Under the pieces are notes generated by a model. The model was given only the letters and a program-made list of their open reading frames with translations, had not been told where the DNA came from and ran no database searches. Position numbers and translations under genes: made by a program. Below, in pieces: positions 21,278 through 26,062 of a stretch of DNA of 38,498 nucleotides; position 1 is the stretch's first letter, and the number at the start of each line of letters is the position of its first letter. The stretch is taken from the NCBI GenBank assembly GCA_041623375.1, contig JBFJXA010000003.1:1-38498 (forward strand). Reading direction: 5' to 3'. The DNA comes from Gammaproteobacteria bacterium. Lineage in GTDB: Bacteria > Pseudomonadota > Gammaproteobacteria > Steroidobacterales > Rariloculaceae.

Positions 21278-21838
21278 TTACTCTGACCCCTCGCGGTCTC
21301 GATCCCAGAGCGGCTCGTCCGTGCAGTTCTGGCGTGCGAGCACGCGCGCGACGACGAAGAGCAGATCGGAGAGACGATTCACGTACTTGAGTAGTTCGGG
21401 GTTGAGCTCGGCTTCATCCGCCAGACGCCACAGTGCTCGTTCTGCCCGGCGGCAGATCGAGCGGGCCAGGTGGCACGACGCCGCCGAACGCGGTCCGCCC
21501 GGCAGGACGAACTCTGTGAGCGGCGGCAGCGGGCCGTTGAGCCTGTCGAGCTCTCTTTCGAGGTTGGCGACATCGTCGGCATCGGTCGTCGCACGGCCCG
21601 GGAGCGCCAGCTCCGCGCCGATGTCGAACAAATTGTGCTGAACGGCCGTGAGCACTGCCCGGACGCTTTGGGGAATGTCGGCCTCGCAGAGGATCAGCCC
21701 GATCGCGCTGTTCGTTTCATCCAGATGACCCGCAGCCTCGATGCGCGTACCCGCTTTCGGCACCTGCTCGCCCGTCGCGAGGCGCGTTAGGCCGCGATCC
21801 CCGCTGCGCGTGTAGATTTTAGTCAGTCGATTGGCCAC
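21278..21838 (-). CDS. PduO-type ATP:cob(I)alamin adenosyltransferase
   Basis: GTG 21838, then ANRLTKIYTRSGDRG; DETNSAIG, QHNLFDIGAEL, EFVLPGG, ARSICRRAER, YVNRLSDLLFV; the longer upstream ORF extension is spurious. Confidence 0.94.
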   Translation of the reverse strand: MANRLTKIYTRSGDRGLTRLATGEQVPKAGTRIEAAGHLDETNSAIGLILCEADIPQSVRAVLTAVQHNLFDIGAELALPGRATTDADDVANLERELDRLNGPLPPLTEFVLPGGPRSAASCHLARSICRRAERALWRLADEAELNPELLKYVNRLSDLLFVVARVLARQNCTDEPLWDRDREGSE

Positions 21839-21893
21839 CGGAGCCCTTCCGCTTGAGTTCGGGGCGACATGATACTCCCGTAACGTGGCAGCG

Positions 21894-22670
21894 CTACTTG
21901 ATCGGCAGCCAGCCGATCTCCATTGCCGTGATGGGGCCGATGAGTGTCTGGCCGAGATTGCGCGGTATCGCCGCGGTCTGCGGATCGAGCGGGATTCGAC
22001 CGGCCATGAGCTCGGCCTTTTTCTGCGGAAAGCGCGGCTCGGCGGTCGCGTCCGCGTAGCCGTGCGGGTACAGCGGCAGGTTCGTGCCCAGCGCGTACTT
22101 GTCGGTCGAGCCGAGTGTGTGCAGAAGCTCGTGGGCCATGACGACTCTGTTGGAGCCGGCGCTGGCACGGCTGGCGAATACCTTCGCAACGGCAATGAGC
22201 CCTCGCTCGAGTGCCGTCGAGCGATCGAGGACTTGAACGTCCGTGTCGTCGTAGTAGACGGCAAAGAGCTGGATATCCGGGCTAGGACGGTCGCTGGCCC
22301 GTTTTACCTTGATGCCGTACCAGCGCATTTTCAGGCTCCAGACGGCTGCATCGAGAAAGCCAGCCGCGTTCGGCAGGACGGGTACGGGATCGTCGACCTG
22401 CCCGGCGAGCTCGAGCCGGAATGGATTCTCGAGCGTAACGCCGTAGCGGCGAGCCTCTCGGGCGAAATACGTCTCGATCGGATCGAAATCGGCATCGCTG
22501 AGACCGTCGATATACGCTTGCGTGCGCTCGCTGCCGTCGCCATTGATCGGATAGACGTCGACCCAGAGCGTGTTGTCCCAATCAGTGCTACGCGCGGCGG
22601 CCAGGTAGTTGCCGACGGCTGCGAAGGCAAGGATGTAGAGCAAGATGGCGATTCGTAGCTTTCTGAACAT
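21894..22670 (-). CDS. Exported/membrane-anchored hypothetical protein, putative zinc metallopeptidase
   Basis: Hydrophobic N-terminus, HELLHTLGSTD (HExxHxxGxxD) and downstream ELMAG Met-turn-like segment. Confidence 0.7.
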   Translation of the reverse strand: MFRKLRIAILLYILAFAAVGNYLAAARSTDWDNTLWVDVYPINGDGSERTQAYIDGLSDADFDPIETYFAREARRYGVTLENPFRLELAGQVDDPVPVLPNAAGFLDAAVWSLKMRWYGIKVKRASDRPSPDIQLFAVYYDDTDVQVLDRSTALERGLIAVAKVFASRASAGSNRVVMAHELLHTLGSTDKYALGTNLPLYPHGYADATAEPRFPQKKAELMAGRIPLDPQTAAIPRNLGQTLIGPITAMEIGWLPIK

Positions 22671-22848
22671 CGTCTCTCAGACAGCTGGGCCGGACCCTCT
22701 AGTCAAACAGCTCCGAGGCGCAAGAGCAGCGCTTCAGGTCACAGTTCGGCGGACTTGCGCGCGCGGGGGTCGAGCGGGCCGCAAGGCCCGGCGGGTGCGA
22801 GCGTTCTGCCGACAGTGAGCATCGGGCAATAGGGCAGAGCGGCCCCAG

Positions 22849-22881
22849 AAAAAGAAAACCCGGCGGTGGGAGCGCCGGGTT
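22849..22881 (-). terminator. Rho-independent terminator of the predicted sRNA
   Basis: Minus strand AACCCGGCG-ctcccac-CGCCGGGTT, continuing into a TTTTCTTTTT tract. Confidence 0.9.
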
Positions 22882-23121
22882 ACGTTTTTATTGTTATCGG
22901 AGTTTACGGTTTCAATTATGCGGCCTGGCTGCGGGCCGTTTCGCCTTTATTGTCGTTTTTGTCCGTGCAATCCAGCCAATATATCGTTGTTTTCGCAGCC
23001 CTAACGTCTTCTTCTTGTTCTATTTCTTGTTCTAATTCTCGATTTCAAATCTAACAGAAGCGAGCGAAGATTCGCAGCGGTTTCTGCTTATTACGCACTC
23101 AGTTGTCCACTCGGTGGACAT
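22849..23121 (-). ncRNA. Predicted ~273-nt sigma-54-dependent small RNA, CrcZ-like architecture (A-rich single-stranded tracts between hairpins)
   Basis: Bounded by sigma-54 promoter and intrinsic terminator; no convincing ORF; AACAAGAA x2, AAGAAGAA, AACAAUAA motifs; hairpins at 23104-23120, 23053-23088, 22921-22938. Confidence 0.7.
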
Positions 23122-23130
23122 GCTAGATTA

Positions 23131-23146
23131 AGCAAGAGCCATGCCA
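23131..23146 (-). promoter_or_regulatory. Sigma-54 (RpoN) -24/-12 promoter
   Basis: Minus strand TGGCATGGCTCTTGCT: GG-N10-GC spacing, close to TGGCAC-N5-TTGCW consensus; predicted TSS ~23120-23121. Confidence 0.85.
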
Positions 23147-23165
23147 TCGTTGGTTTATTAATTAA

Positions 23166-23178
23166 AAACAATCACTTA
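23166..23178 (+). promoter_or_regulatory. Putative IHF site (promoter-proximal)
   Basis: AAACAATCACTTA, one mismatch to WATCAANNNNTTR, about -46 to -58 from the predicted TSS, in an AT tract. Confidence 0.6.
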
Positions 23179-23219
23179 AATGAGAAATCTACGAATACAC
23201 CGAGAACGGCCTCAATGTT

Positions 23220-23270
23220 TGTAAATATTTCCGACGATGATGTTACATAATGATTCTGAAAACGTTGTAA
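23220..23270. promoter_or_regulatory. Candidate enhancer (UAS) region for a sigma-54 activator
   Basis: TGTAA(23220)-N18-TTACA(23243)-N18-TGTAA(23266); GTAAATATTTCCGAC box; about -100 to -150 from the TSS. Confidence 0.5.
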
Positions 23271-23281
23271 TAAAGTTATTT

Positions 23282-23294
23282 TAATTAATTGATT
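23282..23294 (-). promoter_or_regulatory. Putative IHF site (distal)
   Basis: Minus strand AATCAATTAATTA, exact match to WATCAANNNNTTR. Confidence 0.65.
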
Positions 23295-23351
23295 TTAAAG
23301 GCTGCGCAAATTTGTTTAGAAGGCGTCTAAAGTTGCGCGCCCGATCAGCCG

Positions 23352-23371
23352 TGTCGTAAAGGGTATCGACA
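23352..23371. promoter_or_regulatory. Palindromic candidate activator site
   Basis: TGTCG-N10-CGACA inverted repeat containing GTAAA-N5-TCGAC, similar to the box at 23221-23235. Confidence 0.45.
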
Positions 23372-23386
23372 AGCCCAGGTCCCGCC

Positions 23387-26062
23387 TCAGTTCGAGTCGA
23401 GCAACGCCGCACGATCGAACCACACGCCCCCGCGGATCACGGCCTCGATCTCGAGGGAGTCTGATATATCGATCAACGGGTTACCGTCGATTATCACGAG
23501 ATCGGCCAGCTTGCCGGCCTCAACGGTGCCGATCTCGCGCTCCAGGCCGAGTGCCAGGGCGGCCTCCGCGGTTGCGAGTCTGAGCGCCCGGTCGTTCGGT
23601 ACGCCGGATTGTGTCAGCAGCATAAGCTCGGCGTGCAGGCCCAGCCCATACGGGACGCTCGGCGCGTCGCTGCCGGCGGCTACGCGGCCCCCGGCGCTGA
23701 TGAGTGCAGCAACGGTATCGCGTACGCCATCGGCCGCTGCCGCGGTTGCGCTGGGCTCACGCCAACGTGCGCGCTCGGCAGCCGAGTACAGGTTGCGATA
23801 GGCCGGCTCCGTCGACCAGGAAGGACGCTGCGACGCCAACGCACGAAATCCTCCGAAGGCGGCCAGCGTCGGTGTCACAGCCGTGCCGCTGTGCATGAGC
23901 AGACTCAAGACGTCGGCGTAGCTGCGGCTCACGGCCGAGCGTTCGAGGTCATAGGGATCTGGGAGCCGGCCACCGATGTGCTCGAGTCCGTTGATGCCGA
24001 GCCGCACGCCCGCAACCAGATCCTCGCTGAATACCGGGATACCGAACTGCCGTGCGTCGCGGATCAGTGCGCGGTGCAGCTGCGACGGTTGGCCGCGATA
24101 GATCTCGAGAACATCGTAGCTCGGGCGAATGGACACAGCGCGCGCCGGCCAACCGCTCGTGTCGTCGTGCCGGGCGCTCAGCAGCAGGCGCGGGCCGATC
24201 CGGCGACCGCTCGCCCAGGACTCTTTGCGTTCCAACCCGTCGTCCCTGACGCTCGCAACCTCGCGGACGGTCGTGACACCGTAGGCGAGCCAGATTCTGC
24301 CAAGCCGCTCGCCCGTCAACGCGGACTGGTGGGCATGCGAATCGATCAGTCCGGGAATGACCGTCCGACCGCGCGCGTCTATGACGCGCTCCGGCGATGG
24401 GAGCAGTCCGCGCGCTACGACCGCCGTGATGCGATCTCCCTCGATGTGGACGTCCATATGCCGGCGGTATTGCGTCGATACGCCGTCGAACAGGCGGTCC
24501 ACCTGGATGACGTAGGGTTCTGCGGGTTCAGGCGGGGTCCAGGTCAGTGCGGGCGCGCCCTCGTCATCGACGAGCGCACGGCCCGGCAGGGTCACGGCGT
24601 TGTTCCAGATGGAGCTGCGGGTTTGCATGTCGATCTCGAATCGAGCCCGCGTCGCCGCAGCTGCGGAGCGCGGATCGAGCGCCCACAACGTCACAGCGTC
24701 TCCGGACGCATTCCACGCGAGCTGACCCGCGCCGCGCAGATTCCGAGTCAGTGTCTGCGGCCTCGAGCGCGTCGTCAGATCGATGAGCCGAAGCTCGCCG
24801 GGCGCCCACGGGCCGAATCCTCGCGTCGATAAGTACGCGACATGCCTACCATCCGGCGATACGGCGGGCGCATAGTCCTTGGATGGATCGTTCGTGAGCC
24901 GGACGAGTAGTCCCGTTTCCGGGTCAATGGCCCACAGGTCCATGCTGCCGCCGCGGTCGCTCGCAAATATCACGCGGCCGCCGTCGGCCTCGAACGTCGG
25001 ATCGATGTCGACGAAGGCGTCGTTCGTGAGCTGCCGGAGATTGCCATCCCGGGTTTTCAGCCAGATATCGCCGAGAGCGGTGAATACGGTCCGTTCACCC
25101 GAGGGTGACGATCGCGGTGCGCGCAGTCCGAGGACCGGGTGCGGACCCGGACCCGCAGAGACCGAAGTTCGCAAAGCGCTCGGAGCGCGATTGACCGCCA
25201 CGCCCGCGAACACCGGAATCGGATACCGCGTCGCGTTCGCGAGCGTTCTCGACCAGATCTGCCCGTCGGACGTGTAGAGAAACTCCGCCGGGGACCGCCA
25301 CGCCGCTCGAAAGCCGAAAACATCCTCCTCGCTCGTCAGCGTCTTGATGACGGGCTCGTCGGATAGCACGACCATACGCAGATCGCTGTCCGCGGCACCG
25401 CGCAATTCGTTGAAGAGCACGACGCCGCCGCCCGGCCGCCAGCTCGGTGCCCGCAGCGGATTCGCGCTCGTGAGCAACGTCGTGGTGGCGCCCGTCCGCG
25501 CGCGTAATGCGAGCCGCCATTCGCGTCCGCGCCGCTCTACGTAGAGAAGCTCGCCGCGCTCAGAGACGGCCGGCCACGACGCCTCACCGCCGTATGTGAG
25601 ACGCGAGACGGTTTCGGTGACTATGTCGATTTGGTGTATTGCGCTGCCGCCGCTGCGATTCGATACGAAAACGACGGCGCGCCCGTCCGCGGAAAAGTCC
25701 GGGTCGCGTTCGTCATACGGTGGACCCGTCAAACGTCGTCGCGTCAGTGTGGTGAGCTCGAGCAGCCAGAGATCCCATTGTCCTCGGGAGTACGCCTGAT
25801 AAACGAGACGGCGACCGTCGGGCGAGAAGCGCGGATTGCGAGCAGTTTCCTCGGCCGGCAGGAGCGGCCGCGCGCCGCCACCGGTTGCAGGCAATGACCA
25901 CAGCTGGCCCAGGAGGTCGACAACGAGCGTCTCACCGTCCGGCGAGAGGGCGAGTGCCATGTTCGTGCCCTCATTGACGCTCGCAACGATCTCCTGGCCA
26001 GCGACCGGGCCGCCGATCAAACAGCAGCCGATTGCGACAGTAAATAAGGAGCGGATCGCCAC
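23387..26062 (-). CDS. Exported TolB-like (PD40) beta-propeller plus amidohydrolase-superfamily protein
   Basis: Signal peptide; repeats SPDGETL, PRFSPDGRRL, PDFSADG, PAVSPDGR; C-terminal IPGLIDSHAH, YGVTTVRE, GSDAP, IGTVEAGKLADLVIIDGNP. Confidence 0.88.
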   Translation of the reverse strand: MAIRSLFTVAIGCCLIGGPVAGQEIVASVNEGTNMALALSPDGETLVVDLLGQLWSLPATGGGARPLLPAEETARNPRFSPDGRRLVYQAYSRGQWDLWLLELTTLTRRRLTGPPYDERDPDFSADGRAVVFVSNRSGGSAIHQIDIVTETVSRLTYGGEASWPAVSERGELLYVERRGREWRLALRARTGATTTLLTSANPLRAPSWRPGGGVVLFNELRGAADSDLRMVVLSDEPVIKTLTSEEDVFGFRAAWRSPAEFLYTSDGQIWSRTLANATRYPIPVFAGVAVNRAPSALRTSVSAGPGPHPVLGLRAPRSSPSGERTVFTALGDIWLKTRDGNLRQLTNDAFVDIDPTFEADGGRVIFASDRGGSMDLWAIDPETGLLVRLTNDPSKDYAPAVSPDGRHVAYLSTRGFGPWAPGELRLIDLTTRSRPQTLTRNLRGAGQLAWNASGDAVTLWALDPRSAAAATRARFEIDMQTRSSIWNNAVTLPGRALVDDEGAPALTWTPPEPAEPYVIQVDRLFDGVSTQYRRHMDVHIEGDRITAVVARGLLPSPERVIDARGRTVIPGLIDSHAHQSALTGERLGRIWLAYGVTTVREVASVRDDGLERKESWASGRRIGPRLLLSARHDDTSGWPARAVSIRPSYDVLEIYRGQPSQLHRALIRDARQFGIPVFSEDLVAGVRLGINGLEHIGGRLPDPYDLERSAVSRSYADVLSLLMHSGTAVTPTLAAFGGFRALASQRPSWSTEPAYRNLYSAAERARWREPSATAAAADGVRDTVAALISAGGRVAAGSDAPSVPYGLGLHAELMLLTQSGVPNDRALRLATAEAALALGLEREIGTVEAGKLADLVIIDGNPLIDISDSLEIEAVIRGGVWFDRAALLDSN

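Follow-up and report, generated by a model that had tools for sequence, protein, structure and literature searches.

We analysed a stretch of DNA of 38,498 nt (positions 1 to 38,498 of contig JBFJXA010000003.1, referred to below as the window) and found that it carries, on its minus strand, a real and conserved RNA gene of an uncultured gammaproteobacterial lineage, Candidatus Rariloculaceae. The RNA unit of ~270 nt is non-coding, runs from 23120 to ~22849 (predicted ends), follows a sigma-54-type promoter and closes with an intrinsic terminator. An earlier note, made from the letters of the window alone, had described an unannotated, stand-alone RNA gene of this size, had located the sigma-54 box, a 5' hairpin, A-rich tracts and the terminator correctly on the minus strand, and had read the unit as a counterpart of CrcZ, an RNA that titrates Hfq in pseudomonads. 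The RNA gene was borne out by 59 unique homologs, and its sigma-54-type promoter by 39 of these. The explanation that we consider best, and to which we give an even chance, is a trans-acting small RNA (sRNA) of ~270 nt whose transcription is driven by the response regulator PrsR together with sigma-54 and whose AAN tracts occupy Hfq.

The RNA represents a new sRNA family. Scans with Rfam 15 at gathering and at permissive thresholds returned no relevant family, in agreement with the suggestion of the earlier note that the sRNA was undescribed. Literature searches on the family name (Ca. Rariloculaceae/Rariloculales) yielded nothing on the RNA in the titles or abstracts found, no such RNA was described in the top-ranked matches of searches for CrcZ-like RNAs outside pseudomonads and for RpoN-dependent ARN sRNAs, and none was described among the matches listed for PEP-CTERM combined with sRNA, Hfq or small RNA. 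The family is a variant of a known theme, in which a two-component system acts through sigma-54 on a regulatory or decoy RNA, with an unexpected link to PEP-CTERM.

Conservation and distribution of the RNA gene

Removal of duplicates from 77 loci of Ca. Rariloculaceae left the 59 unique homologs of the RNA gene. A DNA search for the stretch in 41 related genomes was positive in 22, with matches in 20 of 24 genomes of the same family and in 1 of 16 from other families. An exact-pattern scan of one genome per species (185,579 species) gave 55 loci, all from metagenome-assembled genomes. These are labelled Gammaproteobacteria or Candidatus Rariloculaceae, except for five labelled Rhodospirillaceae or Rhodospirillales and one labelled Pseudomonadota. 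NCBI taxonomy places Ca. Rariloculaceae within Ca. Rariloculales, and the lineage is, as the earlier note had inferred, not a pseudomonad one. Conservation of the RNA far exceeds that of its neighbours, since its 3' ~85 nt retain 82-92% identity across genera (about 90%) and the flanking protein only 35-83% over the compared part in other genomes.

A covariance model was built from the 3' 177 positions and run on 151 genomes of the order, 29 of which were RNA-positive. Matches were obtained in 11 of the 14 genomes of the window's own family (f1, Ca. Rariloculaceae), and weaker full-length matches in f15 (11/13), f10 (4/14), f13 (1/4) and f11 (1/1); no match was found in 150 other families of the class, represented by one genome each. 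Of 17 distant loci that were retrieved, 16 combine a consensus sigma-54 box with an AAN-rich RNA of ~200-230 nt and a terminator at its end, the box preceding the RNA by 87-111 nt. Promoter, enhancer, AAN tracts and terminator are kept across f1, f15, f10 and f13. The tallies of relatives given here and below for the RNA, CrcZ, hfq, rpoN and PrsR include one unpublished genome (G039), on which no conclusion depends.

Traces of the RNA were also present in public RNA libraries. Eight RNA runs from six studies contained a small share of the stretch's sequence words. From four runs, each of a different study, six contig pieces could be placed, none of them outside 22847-23094. The four main contigs, with lengths of 178-217 nt, show ~93% likeness to the window, for which reason we assign them to relatives, and one of them has a word depth of 106. 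They do not cover 22700-22846 or 23095-23400, which for contig data is no evidence of absence. The contigs are weakly consistent with a discrete, abundant small RNA; they give neither strand nor ends, and DNA in the libraries is possible.

Promoter, enhancer and co-occurrence with PrsR

The -24/-12 element TGGCATGGCTCTTGCT (23131-23146, minus strand, as are all features of the unit) was recognised by sequence match and by conservation. In 39 of the 59 unique homologs a consensus sigma-54 box is placed between -189 and -233 relative to the 3' motif, and rpoN is present in the window's genome and in 39 of 41 relatives. One relative, G009, has no rpoN match, and its copy of the RNA has no sigma-54 box. 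A scan of 22400-23600 found no sigma-70-like promoter.

Upstream of the box is a 17-nt motif, YGTCG-N7-TTACA, which usually ends in TTTACA. Its proximal copy in the window (CGTCGGAAATATTTACA, 23220-23236), the probable PrsR site by prediction, is 73 nt upstream of TGGCA and comes just after a conserved TTATGTAAC (23250-23242); a distal copy (TGTCGATACCCTTTACG, 23355-23371) is ~225 nt upstream of the -24 box. The motif was found ~90 nt upstream of TGGCA in 36 of the 39 sigma-54-type homologs, and a second copy ~225 nt upstream in 24 of them. None of the 19 testable homologs without a sigma-54 box contains it, and therefore the 17-nt box and the promoter come and go together. The spacing is strict in distant homologs, 14 of 17 having the motif at exactly -92 or -93 from TGGCA. 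A further conserved block, TTTGCGCAGCCTTTAAAATCAATTAATTA (23282-23310, ~160 nt upstream of the -24 box), includes TGCGCA and, in the window, an exact IHF-type WATCAANNNNTTR. This block is kept in both promoter types: TGCGCA occurs in 31 of the 39 sigma-54-type homologs and [TC]GCGCA in 13 of 19 homologs without the box. Involvement of IHF was considered and is not claimed, because the strict WATCAANNNNTTR consensus is rare among homologs (6/39 at the upstream site and 3/39 at the downstream site).

The 17-nt motif agrees with PEP-CTERM motif 1 of Haft et al. (2006; PMC1569441), as judged against the published text description and not against the logo. That description gives a motif of 17 nt that ends in TTTACA, is sometimes repeated and is separated from a sigma-54 motif by a spacer of 62.8 nt on average (range 32-92). 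According to the same source, 99 of 167 proteobacterial PEP-CTERM genes have the motif in their upstream region, and its phyletic profile corresponds to those of PrsR (a response regulator), PrsK (a kinase) and PrsT. The locus has a 17-nt motif ending in TTTACA, a second copy and a 73-nt spacer that falls within 32-92, followed by GG-N10-GC; the regulated unit is non-coding and not a PEP-CTERM protein gene. For a PrsR-type regulator of D. vulgaris, DVUA0057, enrichment of predicted PEP-CTERM targets in a DNA-affinity (DAP-chip) assay is described (PMC3333781). By its sequence, then, the enhancer is PEP-CTERM motif 1, the predicted PrsR box, and the activator is most likely PrsR with PrsK as its kinase, both encoded at another genomic location.

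A search of 10 genomes for the box followed, after 60-90 nt, by a sigma-54 motif returned 15 matches, against 1 for a backward control. Nine of the 15 are sRNA loci, and in 6 of the 10 genomes the sRNA locus is the sole match to this strict pattern; in the window's genome only the sRNA locus carries the 17-nt box. Five of the six non-sRNA matches were examined. All five precede open reading frames (ORFs) with a signal-peptide-like start (read by eye), four of them with a PEP-CTERM motif (PF07589) and one PagP-like. The PagP-like outer-membrane protein gene, in G008 (L154), has the same enhancer and sigma-54 promoter and is not a PEP-CTERM gene. A match in G021 (L168), outside these five, has a similar promoter sequence. 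A mis-specified pattern, TGTCR-N6-TTTACR, showed no enrichment over the backward control in 5 genomes and revealed no common site among 9 sigma-54 promoters of the window's genome.

Within f1, PrsR, scored as a TIGR02915 match above cut-off, co-occurs with the sigma-54-type RNA. It was found in 12 of the 14 f1 genomes with this type of RNA, the two misses (G012 and G019) being fragmented assemblies, and in none of the eight genomes with a copy that has neither box nor promoter (genera g4, g6, g13 and g14; two are single-contig genomes). Related genomes are not independent; counted by genus, the split is 8/8 versus 0/4. All four other genomes of the window's genus have PrsR, as do 15 of the 17 RNA-positive genomes that do not belong to f1. 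The RNA and PrsR genes are far apart in genomes that have both (in G010 they are at 3.75 Mb and 1.80 Mb); therefore activation would occur in trans, as the earlier note had supposed. The note's remark that cbrAB is not adjacent also holds; the conserved neighbourhood contains no gene for an enhancer-binding protein.

In the box-less copies (20 of the 59 homologs; L006, L007, L018, L020-L022, L122, L123 and others), which have neither the sigma-54 box nor the 17-nt enhancer, the RNA body is retained, and so is the TGCGCA...AAATCAA block upstream. The genomes that carry these copies have no PrsR match.

RNA structure, A-rich tracts and Hfq

Read from 5' to 3', the family alignment consists of a 5' hairpin, a conserved GUGAGUGCGCAA, a CAGAA/UUCUG hairpin, an (AAN)n block, a long-range GGCUG/CAGCC stem, a near-invariant single strand (AGGCCGCAUAYUUGAAACCGUAAACUCCGAUAACAAnAA) and a terminator that is nearly invariant in stem and loop. 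The 5' hairpin H1 of the window (TGTCCAC-cga-GTGGACA, 23104-23120) is a perfect 7-bp stem that starts at the predicted +1 (~23120). All 39 sigma-54-type homologs form a hairpin of 5-8 bp at this end; its 5' strand occurs in 21 different versions, and a single position can show as many as four types of Watson-Crick pair. Hairpin H2 (23054-23087) has the conserved outer stem CAGAA/UUCUG and an inner stem that covaries when the sequences are folded one by one. Both stems were counted by folding each sequence, a method that leans towards structure. RNAalifold on the full MAFFT alignment lost the 5' hairpins, because the stems were aligned in different registers, and with 58 sequences kept nothing beyond the long-range stem, the terminator and a small hairpin. 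In the window the long-range stem pairs GGCUGC (23000-22995) with GCAGCC (22932-22927), and the terminator (22847-22881) has a 9-bp GC-rich stem followed by a U tract. Of the two internal stem-loops proposed in the earlier note, the one at 23087-23054 stands. The other, CGGCC..GGCCG at 22938-22921, was discarded as a conserved element, since the family does not keep it and conserves the long-range GGCUGn/nCAGCC pairing instead. Promoter, A-rich tracts and stem covariation (in H1 and the inner stem of H2), by which the earlier note had proposed to judge the RNA, were all found in relatives.

All four A-rich tracts named in the earlier note are present in the window. Tract 1, the main (AAN)n tract and predicted ligand of the Hfq distal face, spans 23007-23033 and was recognised by its periodic conservation. 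Tracts 2 (22994-22984) and 3 (22962-22946) are inside the long-range stem, which also encloses a variable hairpin, and tract 4 (22898-22884) is at the end of the near-invariant strand. Tract 3 did not survive comparison as a family feature: it is a gapped, variable stretch of the alignment and is missing from most homologs outside the window's genus. Across alignment columns 102-132, the main AAN block, the A-A columns hardly vary (<=0.55 bits), and the third column of each triplet either varies freely (1.28-1.76 bits) or is mostly G. This 3-nt periodicity fits recognition of A-A-N by a protein and not a base-pairing seed.

The motif counts point in the same direction. The motif AAnAAnAA is described as bound by Hfq, with Crc, in pseudomonads (PMC5113210). 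The window's RNA has five matches in three clusters, and the family median is seven matches in four clusters, against 0.4 in mononucleotide shuffles. The ARN runs exceed those of shuffles in 58 of 58 family sequences and 17 of 17 distant homologs, with <=17 of 200 shuffles reaching the observed value. A median of 55.5 nt of the RNA is within ARN runs. The window's genome (G000) encodes Hfq, and hfq was found in 40 of 41 relatives; co-occurrence with hfq or rpoN does not discriminate, because both are near-universal in the order. We take the N-terminal 65 residues of the window-genome Hfq to be of the E. coli type, including the distal-face residues. The periodicity of the AAN block and the presence of a canonical Hfq make it plausible that the RNA sequesters Hfq.

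A different use of Hfq would be that of a class-II-type sRNA that is anchored by its AAN tracts and U tail and acts by base-pairing, its invariant strand (…GAAACCGUAAACUCCGAUAAC…) pairing with the Shine-Dalgarno GGAG of mRNAs. Class II sRNAs such as ChiX and MgrR present one or more ARN motifs to the distal face of Hfq and a U-tailed terminator to the proximal face, and the RNA described here has this layout of ARN tracts and U-tailed intrinsic terminator. The strand of 40 nt directly upstream of the terminator (AGGCCGCAUAAUUGAAACCGUAAACUCCGAUAACAAUAA, 22888-22926) is near-invariant (about 88-92% identity across genera) and unpaired. It may serve as a seed or as a protein-contact site, a seed being possible because it contains CUCC, which is complementary to GGAG. 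At one site, on contig C6 of the window's genome, GGAGTTTACG is found 2 nt before an ATG. Other observations speak against pairing as the main activity. The number of AAN triplets is far above the need of one Hfq hexamer, and the putative seed is not kept between f1, f15 and f10, families that do keep the AAN tracts. Two target searches in the window's genome, both crude and weak as tests, gave nothing beyond chance: the best duplex reached -32.1 kcal/mol versus shuffled minima of -28.3 to -34.7, and 22 complementary 10-mers were counted versus a mean of 21.3 in shuffles. We regard base-pairing as the main activity as possible but rather doubtful; it may coexist with titration. Contigs C55, C70 and C123 of the window's genome have a common CGGAGTTTACGG, the perfect complement of CCGUAAACUCCG in the RNA, at sites away from obvious start codons; the overall count of complementary words was not above that in shuffles.

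A reading without an RNA gene was also weighed. A 62-aa ORF on the plus strand (22866-23054) and a 29-codon ORF that begins at +2 of the RNA in the window could suggest an unrecognised small protein, or the conserved segments might be regulatory elements that act as DNA. The conservation is not codon-like, however, as it takes the form of invariant 40-nt runs and of hairpins with compensatory changes, and the variable position of the AAN block is the third base of A-A-N on the RNA strand. The AUG of the 29-codon ORF is missing from other homologs, the unit is bracketed by promoter and terminator, and contigs from RNA libraries match it. We find it hardly credible that there is no RNA gene here.

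Proposed mechanism, related systems and neighbouring genes

In the mechanism that we propose, PrsK and PrsR would switch on a PEP-CTERM/exopolysaccharide (aggregate or biofilm) programme, and PrsR bound at the 17-nt enhancer would activate the sigma-54 promoter to produce a burst of RNA. The 5' hairpin would protect the RNA, and Hfq would be loaded on its distal face by the AAN tracts and on its proximal face by the U tail. By occupying Hfq the RNA would reprogramme post-transcriptional control, chiefly, in the manner of CrcZ, by titrating Hfq off A-rich sites in mRNAs; base-pairing or contact with a partner protein might be contributed by the invariant 3' strand. We suggest that the RNA acts mainly by occupying Hfq because it combines an excess of AAN triplets over the need of one hexamer with a tightly switched promoter. 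Its function would not be tied to PEP-CTERM proteins as such, because lineages in which PrsR was not found keep the RNA under another promoter.

Several observations weigh against this explanation. Single-sequence folding of the RNA gave a z score of -2.27 relative to shuffles, 2 of 200 of which folded equally well, and the sigma-54 box, taken by itself, does not significantly exceed chance in the window (two matches at <=1 mismatch versus 0.86 expected; 23 of 100 shuffles reach >=2); with the fold this modest, the case therefore rests on comparative evidence. The pairs of the long-range stem and of the terminator are nearly invariant and offer too few changes for covariation, because both elements barely vary. 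Titration alone does not account for the invariant 40-nt strand, which is not A-rich. The input is not universal, given the homologs that have no sigma-54 box. The correspondence with PrsR is also imperfect: the window's own genome, in an assembly that is 72.8% complete, has no PrsR or PrsK over the cut-off, four RNA-positive genomes (G012, G019, G034 and G085) have no PrsR match, one f1 genome (G018) has PrsR and no RNA match, and PrsR is far more widespread than the RNA (83 versus 29 of 151 genomes). No Crc partner was found in the window's genome, at the same completeness. Finally, the start and the strand of the transcript, its dependence on sigma-54 and PrsR, the binding of Hfq and titration are predictions.

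None of the enhancer-binding proteins of the window's genome reaches the PrsR cut-off. They are NtrC, PspF, a PilR-like protein next to pilA, a FleQ/FleS/FleR-like cluster (assigned by gene order only) and one protein with a PAS domain. On contig C73 of this genome (L086, 1-900), genes for a histidine kinase and for a sigma-54 response regulator come before a type IV pilin gene (MRKMQHGFTLIELMIVVAII) that has a consensus sigma-54 promoter in front of it; this arrangement is PilS/PilR-pilA.

The CrcZ framing of the earlier note did not hold. We consider it highly improbable that the RNA is truly homologous to CrcZ/CrcY and works in catabolite repression with CbrAB, Crc and Hfq, even though it shares with CrcZ a sigma-54 box and several AAnAAnAA motifs and though a GTAACA is present at 23246-23241. 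GTAACA is described as the 'R' subsite of CbrB, whose subsites TGTTAC and GTAACA are 12-16 nt apart (PMC6296734); the window has this single one, and the conserved, positioned enhancer is YGTCG-N7-TTACA (PEP-CTERM motif 1) instead. The Rfam CrcZ model (RF01675) scored 8.7 bits against the window (E 7.9), over only a 49-nt A-rich stretch, compared with a gathering score of 95, and gave no match over cut-off in the 151 genomes of the order. No frame with an SSF domain and more than 724 aa, as expected for a CbrA-like fusion, was found in five complete or near-complete genomes of the family, and the descriptions in PMC6296734 and PMC8871633 confine CbrAB to pseudomonads. Two ExoIII-family proteins are encoded in the window's genome. 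The nearest relative of Crc among them (contig C134, L093 866-1660, 264 aa) scores 287 bits to the Neisseria nuclease 2jc5 versus 242 to Crc (4jg3). It has ELK, GDFN and SDH where Crc has DTR, GSLY and SQH, and reads as a nuclease because the catalytic residues of AP endonucleases are kept. This NApe-type AP endonuclease seems to mark the nuclease subfamily from which P. aeruginosa Crc derived. Of what the CrcZ framing would call for, hfq and rpoN were found in the genomes searched, and crc and a cbrA-type kinase were not. Since the enhancer is PEP-CTERM motif 1, the exopolysaccharide/PEP-CTERM programme of PrsK/PrsR is a more likely input than carbon catabolite control.

Like CrcZ, CrcY and CrcX of Pseudomonadaceae, the RNA has a sigma-54-type promoter, presumably under a distant two-component enhancer-binding regulator, several AAnAAnAA/ARN motifs in a structured RNA of a few hundred nt and an intrinsic terminator, and it would, by analogy with CrcZ, titrate Hfq. 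Paralogs exist in some genomes, as with CrcZ and CrcY; G131 (f15) has two diverged copies (L126 and L131), each with its own sigma-54 box and 17-nt enhancer. Unlike CrcZ, it has no sequence or structure match to that family, a different enhancer, a presumed activator that is PrsR and not CbrB, and a long invariant strand that is not A-rich. No Crc or CbrA was found, the putative input is PEP-CTERM/exopolysaccharide and not carbon quality, and the RNA gene is not beside that of its regulator. Distance from cbrB is described as not unusual among pseudomonad Crc sRNAs, CrcY mapping away from cbrB (PMC5113210).

The RNA also resembles PEP-CTERM promoters as described in PMC1569441, in that the same box precedes PEP-CTERM genes in relatives and in that it co-occurs with PrsR. 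It differs from PEP-CTERM genes in that its product is a non-coding RNA and not a secreted PEP-CTERM protein, and in that it persists under another promoter in lineages where PrsR was not found. Qrr1-5 (with LuxO) and GlmY (with GlrR/QseF) similarly combine a two-component enhancer-binding regulator with a -24/-12 promoter, the RNA relaying the signal post-transcriptionally; neither family was matched in Rfam scans of the window. Qrr and GlmY are shorter and are not AAN-repeat RNAs; Qrr acts by base-pairing and GlmY as a decoy for RapZ. In comparison with ChiX and MgrR, the RNA is much longer, has several long AAN tracts where these have one short tract, and has no known target.

We put forward, as a tentative and on balance improbable extension, that the most conserved direct target of PrsK/PrsR across the order is a sigma-54-dependent RNA that titrates the distal face of Hfq, a functional CrcZ analogue of separate origin that is independent of Crc and CbrAB and is kept, with a swapped promoter, where PrsR was not found. 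If this is true, it would be a regulatory layer not seen before, in which the change to an aggregated life style with matrix production brings with it a global shift in Hfq-dependent translation. To our knowledge, PrsK/PrsR has so far been linked only to PEP-CTERM proteins and to exopolysaccharide and floc formation, and we know of Hfq-titrating RNAs of such a type only from the CbrAB-CrcZ circuit of Pseudomonadaceae. The locus is a candidate for the logic of two-component system, sigma-54, A-rich decoy RNA and Hfq in an unrelated, largely uncultured lineage with a different input. It would also be the first candidate non-coding member of the PEP-CTERM/exosortase regulon, which, according to the literature consulted, is important for the formation of flocs and biofilms in sediments, soils and activated sludge. 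The single-contig genomes in the related families f15 and f10 may be from cultured isolates, in which case genetics and Hfq biochemistry would be feasible. The RNA family merits an entry in RNA family databases, which would end its lack of annotation.

The RNA gene occupies a 716-nt spacer on the minus strand, between the stop codon of a PD40/amidohydrolase gene (23387-26062, 891 aa) upstream and a 258-aa ORF with a HELLH motif (orf258, HExxH; 21894-22670) downstream, both on the minus strand. The amidohydrolase gene precedes the RNA in 56 of the 59 loci, a PduO-type adenosyltransferase gene is beside it in 42 and orf258 in 30, counts that are limited by the length of the loci. As the downstream genes have the same orientation, the RNA might be a cis-acting leader or attenuator of orf258 and the adenosyltransferase gene and not a free sRNA. 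Yet a strong, invariant terminator with a long U tract stands ahead of these genes, and no orf258 could be found at roughly half of the loci. The RNA persists in distant homologs, and at L124 (1 of 17 loci, inspected by eye) a downstream -10-like TACAAT with an ATG suggests that the next gene has its own promoter. No alternative antiterminator pairing was noticed, and AAN periodicity has no known role in attenuators. A role as a leader is, in our estimate, very improbable, and the trans-acting sRNA remains the reading that we prefer.

The 258-aa ORF has a hydrophobic N-terminus and the HELLH at residue 180, and is without a Pfam match. It overlaps a 328-aa frame (21278-22264) that has a Cob_adeno_trans (PduO-type) domain. 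The true adenosyltransferase gene probably starts later within this frame, because the domain comprises residues 150-309 of the 328. At 38311-38498 the window contains the start of a 16S rRNA gene that runs off its end (Rfam SSU, 115 bits).

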